Positions 54,594 to 54,731 of a DNA stretch of 64,000 bases are shown piece after piece. How positions within the stretch are numbered: the stretch's first letter is position 1; each line of letters opens with the position of its first letter. The translations under genes were made by a program, and so were the position numbers. The DNA is from Escherichia coli (GTDB taxonomy: Bacteria; Pseudomonadota; Gammaproteobacteria; Enterobacterales; Enterobacteriaceae), in NCBI RefSeq assembly GCF_017348835.2, contig NZ_CP071375.1. One strand, written 5' to 3'. The notes beneath the pieces were generated by a model. The model searched no databases. It worked only from the letters and a program-made list of their open reading frames with translations, and was not told the origin of the DNA.

Positions 54594-54731
54594 TTACTTT
54601 TCAGCGGGGCGTTTTCTGCCGGTTGGGTTATTTACCACGCTGGATTTGTCACCTTCGGTAACTATTTTGCGCTGGTTAGAAATTTTATGGTCCAGTCCAA
54701 GAATATGACGTGCCTGACGGTTCGATTTCAT
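54594..54731 (-). CDS. sra: Sra (RpsV) stationary-phase ribosome-associated protein, 45 aa
   Basis: Minus-strand ORF translating to [45 protein letters not shown]; below ORF-track cutoff. Confidence 0.85.

Follow-up and report, generated by a model that had tools for sequence, protein, structure and literature searches.

The short minus-strand reading frame at 54594..54731 of the window, by which we mean the whole 64,000-nucleotide stretch of Escherichia coli DNA analysed here, is almost certainly best explained as the known E. coli gene sra (b1480), with a role in ribosome hibernation as the putative part of that explanation. sra is an unremarkable core gene of E. coli that was already annotated, and its identification here carries no novelty. 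It is a conserved 45-codon gene under purifying selection, with a strong Shine-Dalgarno sequence and a conserved terminator. Its recovery below an ORF-size threshold shows how length cutoffs can conceal genuine small proteins, and its product is among the least understood ribosome hibernation factors of E. coli, yet is present in thousands of copies in stationary phase. Comparative analysis also supports a structured sra leader, which is only mildly new material.

Identity and conservation of the gene

The sequence-only reading had claimed a short minus-strand ORF at this position, and the frame is present exactly as described: it starts with ATG at 54731, ends with a TAA stop at 54596..54594 and encodes 45 aa, with a Shine-Dalgarno sequence, GAGGAG (54737..54742, minus strand), read directly 5 nt 5' of the ATG. 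The sequence-only reading had put its absence from the ORF track down to its size, and the ORF lister used here, with a default minimum of 60 aa, would leave it out. As the window contains 370 ORFs of at least 45 aa, 125 of them between 45 and 59 aa, ORF length alone is no evidence for a gene, and the case rests on homology and conservation.

The product matches the Pfam family PF08136 (SRA_like, 'Ribosome hibernation factor SRA') with E=2.6e-31 and 108.2 bits (curated cutoff, 25) along the full profile (positions 1-46 of 46), and this is the only family that the Pfam scan assigns to it. It also matches the NCBIfam equivalog NF007473 (74.5 bits against a curated cutoff of 35), and by BLASTP it is identical at 45 of 45 positions to b1480 of E. 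coli K-12 MG1655 (NP_415997.1), the protein formerly named RpsV or S22 and also called protein D. The earlier reading had recognized Sra here, had proposed an alignment as a check and had named a lack of Sra similarity as the result that would overturn it; the alignment found similarity over the full length. The protein has 45 aa, a computed mass of 5.1 kDa and a pI of 11.0, with 11 lysines and arginines against 4 aspartates and glutamates, in line with the 45 aa and pI of 11.04 given for Sra in the literature.

The gene is also nearly unchanged between strains. Relative to K-12, the coding sequence has a single synonymous difference, GTG versus GTA at codon 32 (window position 54636), and the two strains share the neighbours bdm and maeA, the terminator and the promoter sequence. 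The flanks differ from K-12 only at single bases, at 54751 (A here, T in K-12) and at 54512 (G here, A in K-12), a position that separates the -10 of maeA from its transcription start. The 751 bases around sra are 100% identical to E. coli strain PE164, whose RefSeq sra CDS (L001 4195..4332) corresponds exactly to window positions 54594..54731. The locus recurs in nearly all complete E. coli genomes (5,412 of 5,426), where its genes are annotated as bdm, sra and maeA.

Beyond E. coli, one genome per species was scanned with a DNA pattern; of the 84 stretches recovered, about 76 contain an intact sra. The orthologues come essentially all from Enterobacteriaceae, including Escherichia, Salmonella, Citrobacter, Enterobacter, Kosakonia, Leclercia, Lelliottia, Pluralibacter, Trabulsiella, Phytobacter, Superficieibacter, Silvania and others; the scan used an exact pattern and missed Klebsiella and Raoultella. 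This restriction to one family agrees with a recent study that dated the origin of Sra within Enterobacteriaceae and described the protein as fast-evolving, with 44% substitutions between E. coli and Klebsiella. Selection on the protein is evident in pairwise dN/dS values of 0.07-0.5 between the window sra and six orthologues (Salmonella, Citrobacter, E. albertii, an Intestinirhabdus-like contig and two metagenome contigs). Across 42 distinct orthologues, 16 residues are invariant, concentrated at positions 1-22 and 38-41: M1-H9, G12, S18, N19, K22 and the C-terminal G38-R39-x-R41.

Two of the sequences returned by the scan stand apart. A contig labelled Chryseobacterium sp. 18061 (Bacteroidota; CACSKA010000006.1, 2109..2131) carries a typical enterobacterial sra with conserved leader and terminator, closest to the Pluralibacter and Citrobacter sp. 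18056 sequences, and the assembly is probably contaminated or mislabelled. In Enterobacter sp. EA-1 (CP025776.1, 7216..7238), sra is truncated at codon 17, reflecting either a pseudogene or a sequencing error.

Readings of the frame and of its product

That the frame is merely an untranslated chance opening between bdm and maeA is vanishingly improbable. Frames of this size are indeed very common, as the 370 found in the window attest, but a chance frame would not be expected to yield the Pfam and NCBIfam equivalog matches described above or dN/dS values well below 1, nor to keep its reading frame, start codon, Shine-Dalgarno sequence and terminator in about 75 species. The protein itself has been seen on ribosomes by 2D gels and by quantitative and native mass spectrometry (PMC9959377; PMC13220301), and homology, selection signal and proteomic detection together already refute a chance origin. 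We give next to no weight, likewise, to the idea that the functional product is a 68-aa ORF on the opposite strand that overlaps sra (54573..54779, plus strand). Its frame is open for at least 60 codons in 49 of 72 orthologues, but it is broken in the remaining 23, begins with TTG and draws no Pfam hit even with E allowed up to 1, and the substitution pattern across the locus fits selection on the sense frame. A codon-aligned antisense frame stays open whenever the sense frame lacks TTA, CTA and TCA codons, so we regard this ORF as a by-product of sra.

A different question is whether the old name S22 is apt and Sra is a true structural component of the ribosome instead of a conditional factor of stationary phase; we consider this reading very unlikely. 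Sra binds the 30S subunit tightly and was once listed as the 22nd small-subunit protein (PMC10502375), and native mass spectrometry of one preparation showed 30S plus SRA to be more abundant than any other 30S species (PMC13220301). Yet a universal small-subunit protein has a broad distribution and a place in solved structures, and Sra has neither: the family is restricted to Enterobacteriaceae both in our genome scan and in the published dating of its origin, it evolves fast, and no solved ribosome structure contains it, as no PDB chain matched it when the database was searched by sequence and by family profile. Its abundance argues in the same direction. The sequence-only reading had suggested checking stationary-phase expression, and the literature on the identical protein bears this out, with 640 copies per cell in growth and 5,851 in stationary phase (PMC11102965; PMC10502375); within about six days, both Sra and RMF are then gone from ribosomes and from the proteome (PMC9959377).

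Sra is better read as a conditional factor, and we propose that it serves as an accessory ribosome hibernation or protection factor. The roughly nine-fold rise in stationary phase is described as being under RpoS and ppGpp control, with indirect repression by CsrA during growth, and deletion of sra lowers the ampicillin tolerance of HipA-induced persisters about 1,000-fold at 48 h (PMC8407246). Reviews call the function of Sra unknown or obscure and its role in hibernation putative (PMC10502375; PMC11102965; PMC10746276).

Comparison with better-characterized factors places these properties in context. RMF, like Sra, is a small, basic 30S-binding protein that is abundant in stationary phase (PMC10502375), and the two appear on and leave ribosomes in parallel (PMC9959377). 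RMF drives 70S dimerization, whereas Sra is reportedly without effect on the distribution of ribosome forms (PMC10746276), and a recent evolutionary study describes RMF as older and more widespread than Sra. HPF and RaiA (YfiA), stationary-phase ribosome binders as well, are grouped with Sra as hibernation factors and repressed by CsrA in growth (PMC10746276). They differ from Sra in being folded domains, about 95-113 aa long, that bind at the decoding centre, whereas Sra is a 45-aa peptide without a PDB match. An AlphaFold model built from the 42 orthologues has moderate confidence (pLDDT 72, pTM 0.31) and contains a short N-terminal helix and a beta-hairpin; it is not a globular fold and is silent on binding. 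We suggest that the invariant basic N-terminal segment and the C-terminal GR[KH]R motif may contact 16S rRNA, and that such contacts would be made on idle 30S, 70S or 100S particles. Sra would probably act together with RMF, leaving the distribution of ribosome forms itself unchanged.

Neighbouring genes, promoters and terminator

The frame lies between maeA and bdm, as the earlier reading had claimed, with maeA annotated at 52740..54437 and bdm, the upstream gene, at 54833..55048, both on the minus strand. Domain searches identify maeA by its malic enzyme domains and bdm by PF10684 (E=4.7e-51, with an NCBIfam equivalog match and RefSeq annotation), and also find osmC. The order sra to maeA is kept in about 75 Enterobacteriaceae species, at nearly every locus with enough flanking sequence, and bdm stands 5' of sra in fewer species, about 32 of 71. 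In species that lack bdm, a different sequence, often a hairpin, precedes the conserved sra leader.

In the genome-wide transcription start site (TSS) table of Kim et al. 2012, one sra TSS is listed, with an 84-nt UTR, at the final G of ...GGTGCTATGCTTGATCGG (PMC3415461). As the window sequence is identical to K-12 at this mapped site, the TSS falls at 54815 and the 5' leader spans 54732..54815 on the minus strand. The same published TSS places the sra -10 region, TGC-TATGCT, at 54822..54830 (minus strand; hexamer 54827..54822) (PMC3415461). This -10, TGCTATGCT, overlaps the bdm stop codon (54835..54833), and CTA[T/A]GCT is kept at the position in genera that contain bdm. A C at -13, as found here, is typical of sigma-S promoters. 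From this sequence and from statements in the literature (PMC10502375), the promoter is probably recognized by sigma-S. Pourciau et al. 2023 report two sources of sra transcripts, the gene's own promoter and that of bdm, with indirect repression of both by CsrA (PMC10746276). For the Klebsiella orthologue of sra, no TSS was found in the accessible part of the Kim et al. 2012 supplement (PMC3415461).

Two further candidates in this region were considered. An additional promoter close to the ATG (TAAAAC, 54761..54756), which would give a UTR of about 18 nt, is the less likely reading of that box: the TSS has been mapped to 54815, and leader RNA explains the sequence better. A pair of CsrA sites in the leader (ACAGGA beside GAGGAG) was set aside because published leader fusions are without CsrA regulation and the effect of CsrA is indirect (PMC10746276).

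The sequence-only reading also gave sra a hairpin terminator of its own, and this too holds up. A pattern scan and folding place it at 54527..54564 (minus strand), where it would also end read-through transcripts from bdm into sra. The stem-loop (54564..54537) has 12 pairs and a 4-nt loop, CUGC, and is followed by the T-run TTGTTTTTAT. Its minimum free energy (MFE) is -19.1 kcal/mol; shuffled sequences average -9.3 (z=-3.5), and none of 200 folds as well. Under strict criteria, a hairpin with a T-run lies 7-50 nt 3' of the sra stop in 66 of 74 orthologues, and the stem shows many compensatory variants, among them ACCATTGC/GCAATGGT, ACCATCGG/CCGATGGT and CCACCCC/GGGGTGG.

The maeA promoter begins directly 3' of the terminator T-run. 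Its -10, TATACT (54520..54515), and its TSS at 54507 together span 54507..54520 on the minus strand, the TSS being the final G of ...GCTTTATACTTGAGGCCG with a UTR of 70 nt in the Kim et al. 2012 table (PMC3415461). In 40 of 77 loci, the sequence GCTTTATACT occurs no more than 160 nt downstream of sra. Given the listed TSS, the longest maeA ORF (GTG at 54473, 577 aa) over-extends the annotated 565-aa protein (ATG at 54437).

Elsewhere in the window and in PE164 we noted several features of the wider neighbourhood. Downstream of osmC (55859..58032, minus strand, and beyond) lie a 3-hydroxybutyrate dehydrogenase gene and one for a GntP-family permease. PE164 carries these dehydrogenase and permease genes on the osmC side, with a 3-hydroxyacyl-CoA dehydrogenase gene and an acetyl-CoA acetyltransferase gene after them, and in Citrobacter the same dehydrogenase and transporter genes adjoin osmC. 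K-12 differs from the window strain beyond osmC, its ddpFDCB operon directly adjoining that gene. Rfam gave a single match above its gathering score in the window, a SECIS_3 selenocysteine insertion element at 46789..46847 (plus strand; 84.3 bits); it presumably lies in the gene for the formate dehydrogenase-N alpha subunit, since fdnI is nearby in PE164. Also in PE164, genes for a HigA-family antitoxin (yddM) and a RelE/ParE-family toxin (L001 449..1011) are located between fdnI and adhP, next to adhP, in what corresponds to the window region upstream of 51596.

Structure in the sra leader

The 84-nt leader is conserved across about 70 Enterobacteriaceae species. We aligned 68 distinct leaders, all of which contain an [A/G]AGGAG Shine-Dalgarno sequence in which AGGAG is invariant. 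The clearest structural element is a mid-leader hairpin, CUUCGC-UACG-GCGAUG (54769..54784, minus strand), with a C(UACG)G tetraloop in E. coli. All 6 of its 6 pairs vary on both sides across the 68 leaders and 91.7% of cells are paired, values reached by 0 of 500 shuffles, and the signal is lost once the partners are slid. The loop is GNRA instead of UACG in Salmonella and Enterobacter, and the hairpin is deleted in Leclercia, Silvania and Pluralibacter.

A second element involves the ribosome-binding site. In the MFE fold of the leader, UCCUUAA (54765..54759) pairs with UUGAGGA (54744..54738) to form a candidate Shine-Dalgarno-occluding helix (54738..54765, minus strand). Across species, the box UCCUU[A/G]A is near-invariant and pairs with UU[G/A]AGGA, the Shine-Dalgarno sequence included; 94.7% of cells in the 68 leaders are paired, with changes on one side only. 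Two positions switch between A and G in a linked manner, such that CCTTA occurs with GAGGAG in 33 species and CCTTG with AAGGAG in 40, with 0 mixed cases. The switch exchanges U.G/A-U for U-A/G.U, so that helix strength stays constant. Shared ancestry could explain part of this linkage, as the CCTTA/GAGGAG state is found in exactly the species that have bdm and the CTAWGCT promoter. A rival inner helix in the leader has 90.1% of cells paired and is broken in Kosakonia. These patterns suggest that the UCCUUAA box may occlude the Shine-Dalgarno sequence, and an earlier RNAfold model of the sra leader, based on a single sequence, also involved the Shine-Dalgarno region (PMC10917681).

The support extends to local elements only: a globally structured leader was rejected, as the MFE of the whole leader is no better than that of shuffles (z=0.06). 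An Rfam search with the leader and gene returned no family, and gave only sub-threshold chance matches on the terminator. Translational coupling through a 20-codon upstream ORF (54728..54790), whose stop overlaps the sra ATG, was also considered and discarded, since the ORF is not conserved; it has in-frame stops in E. albertii and Intestinirhabdus and lacks a start codon in Salmonella.

It is possible, and in our view somewhat unlikely, that the 84-nt leader is an uncatalogued, conserved element of post-transcriptional control, in which the helix would keep translation off in growth and open in stationary phase. Opening might respond to, for example, polyamines, a protein or an sRNA. Cadaverine has been reported to stimulate an sra translational fusion, and sra fusions peak in stationary phase (PMC10917681). 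A conserved, structured leader could offer a handle on the control of Sra synthesis.

The leader also contains one of the few differences between the window and K-12. Base 54751 is A here and in other species (AGCAACAGG) and T in K-12 MG1655 (AGCTACAGG); because the A is common to other species, K-12 MG1655 carries a derived variant inside the conserved ACAGGA motif.
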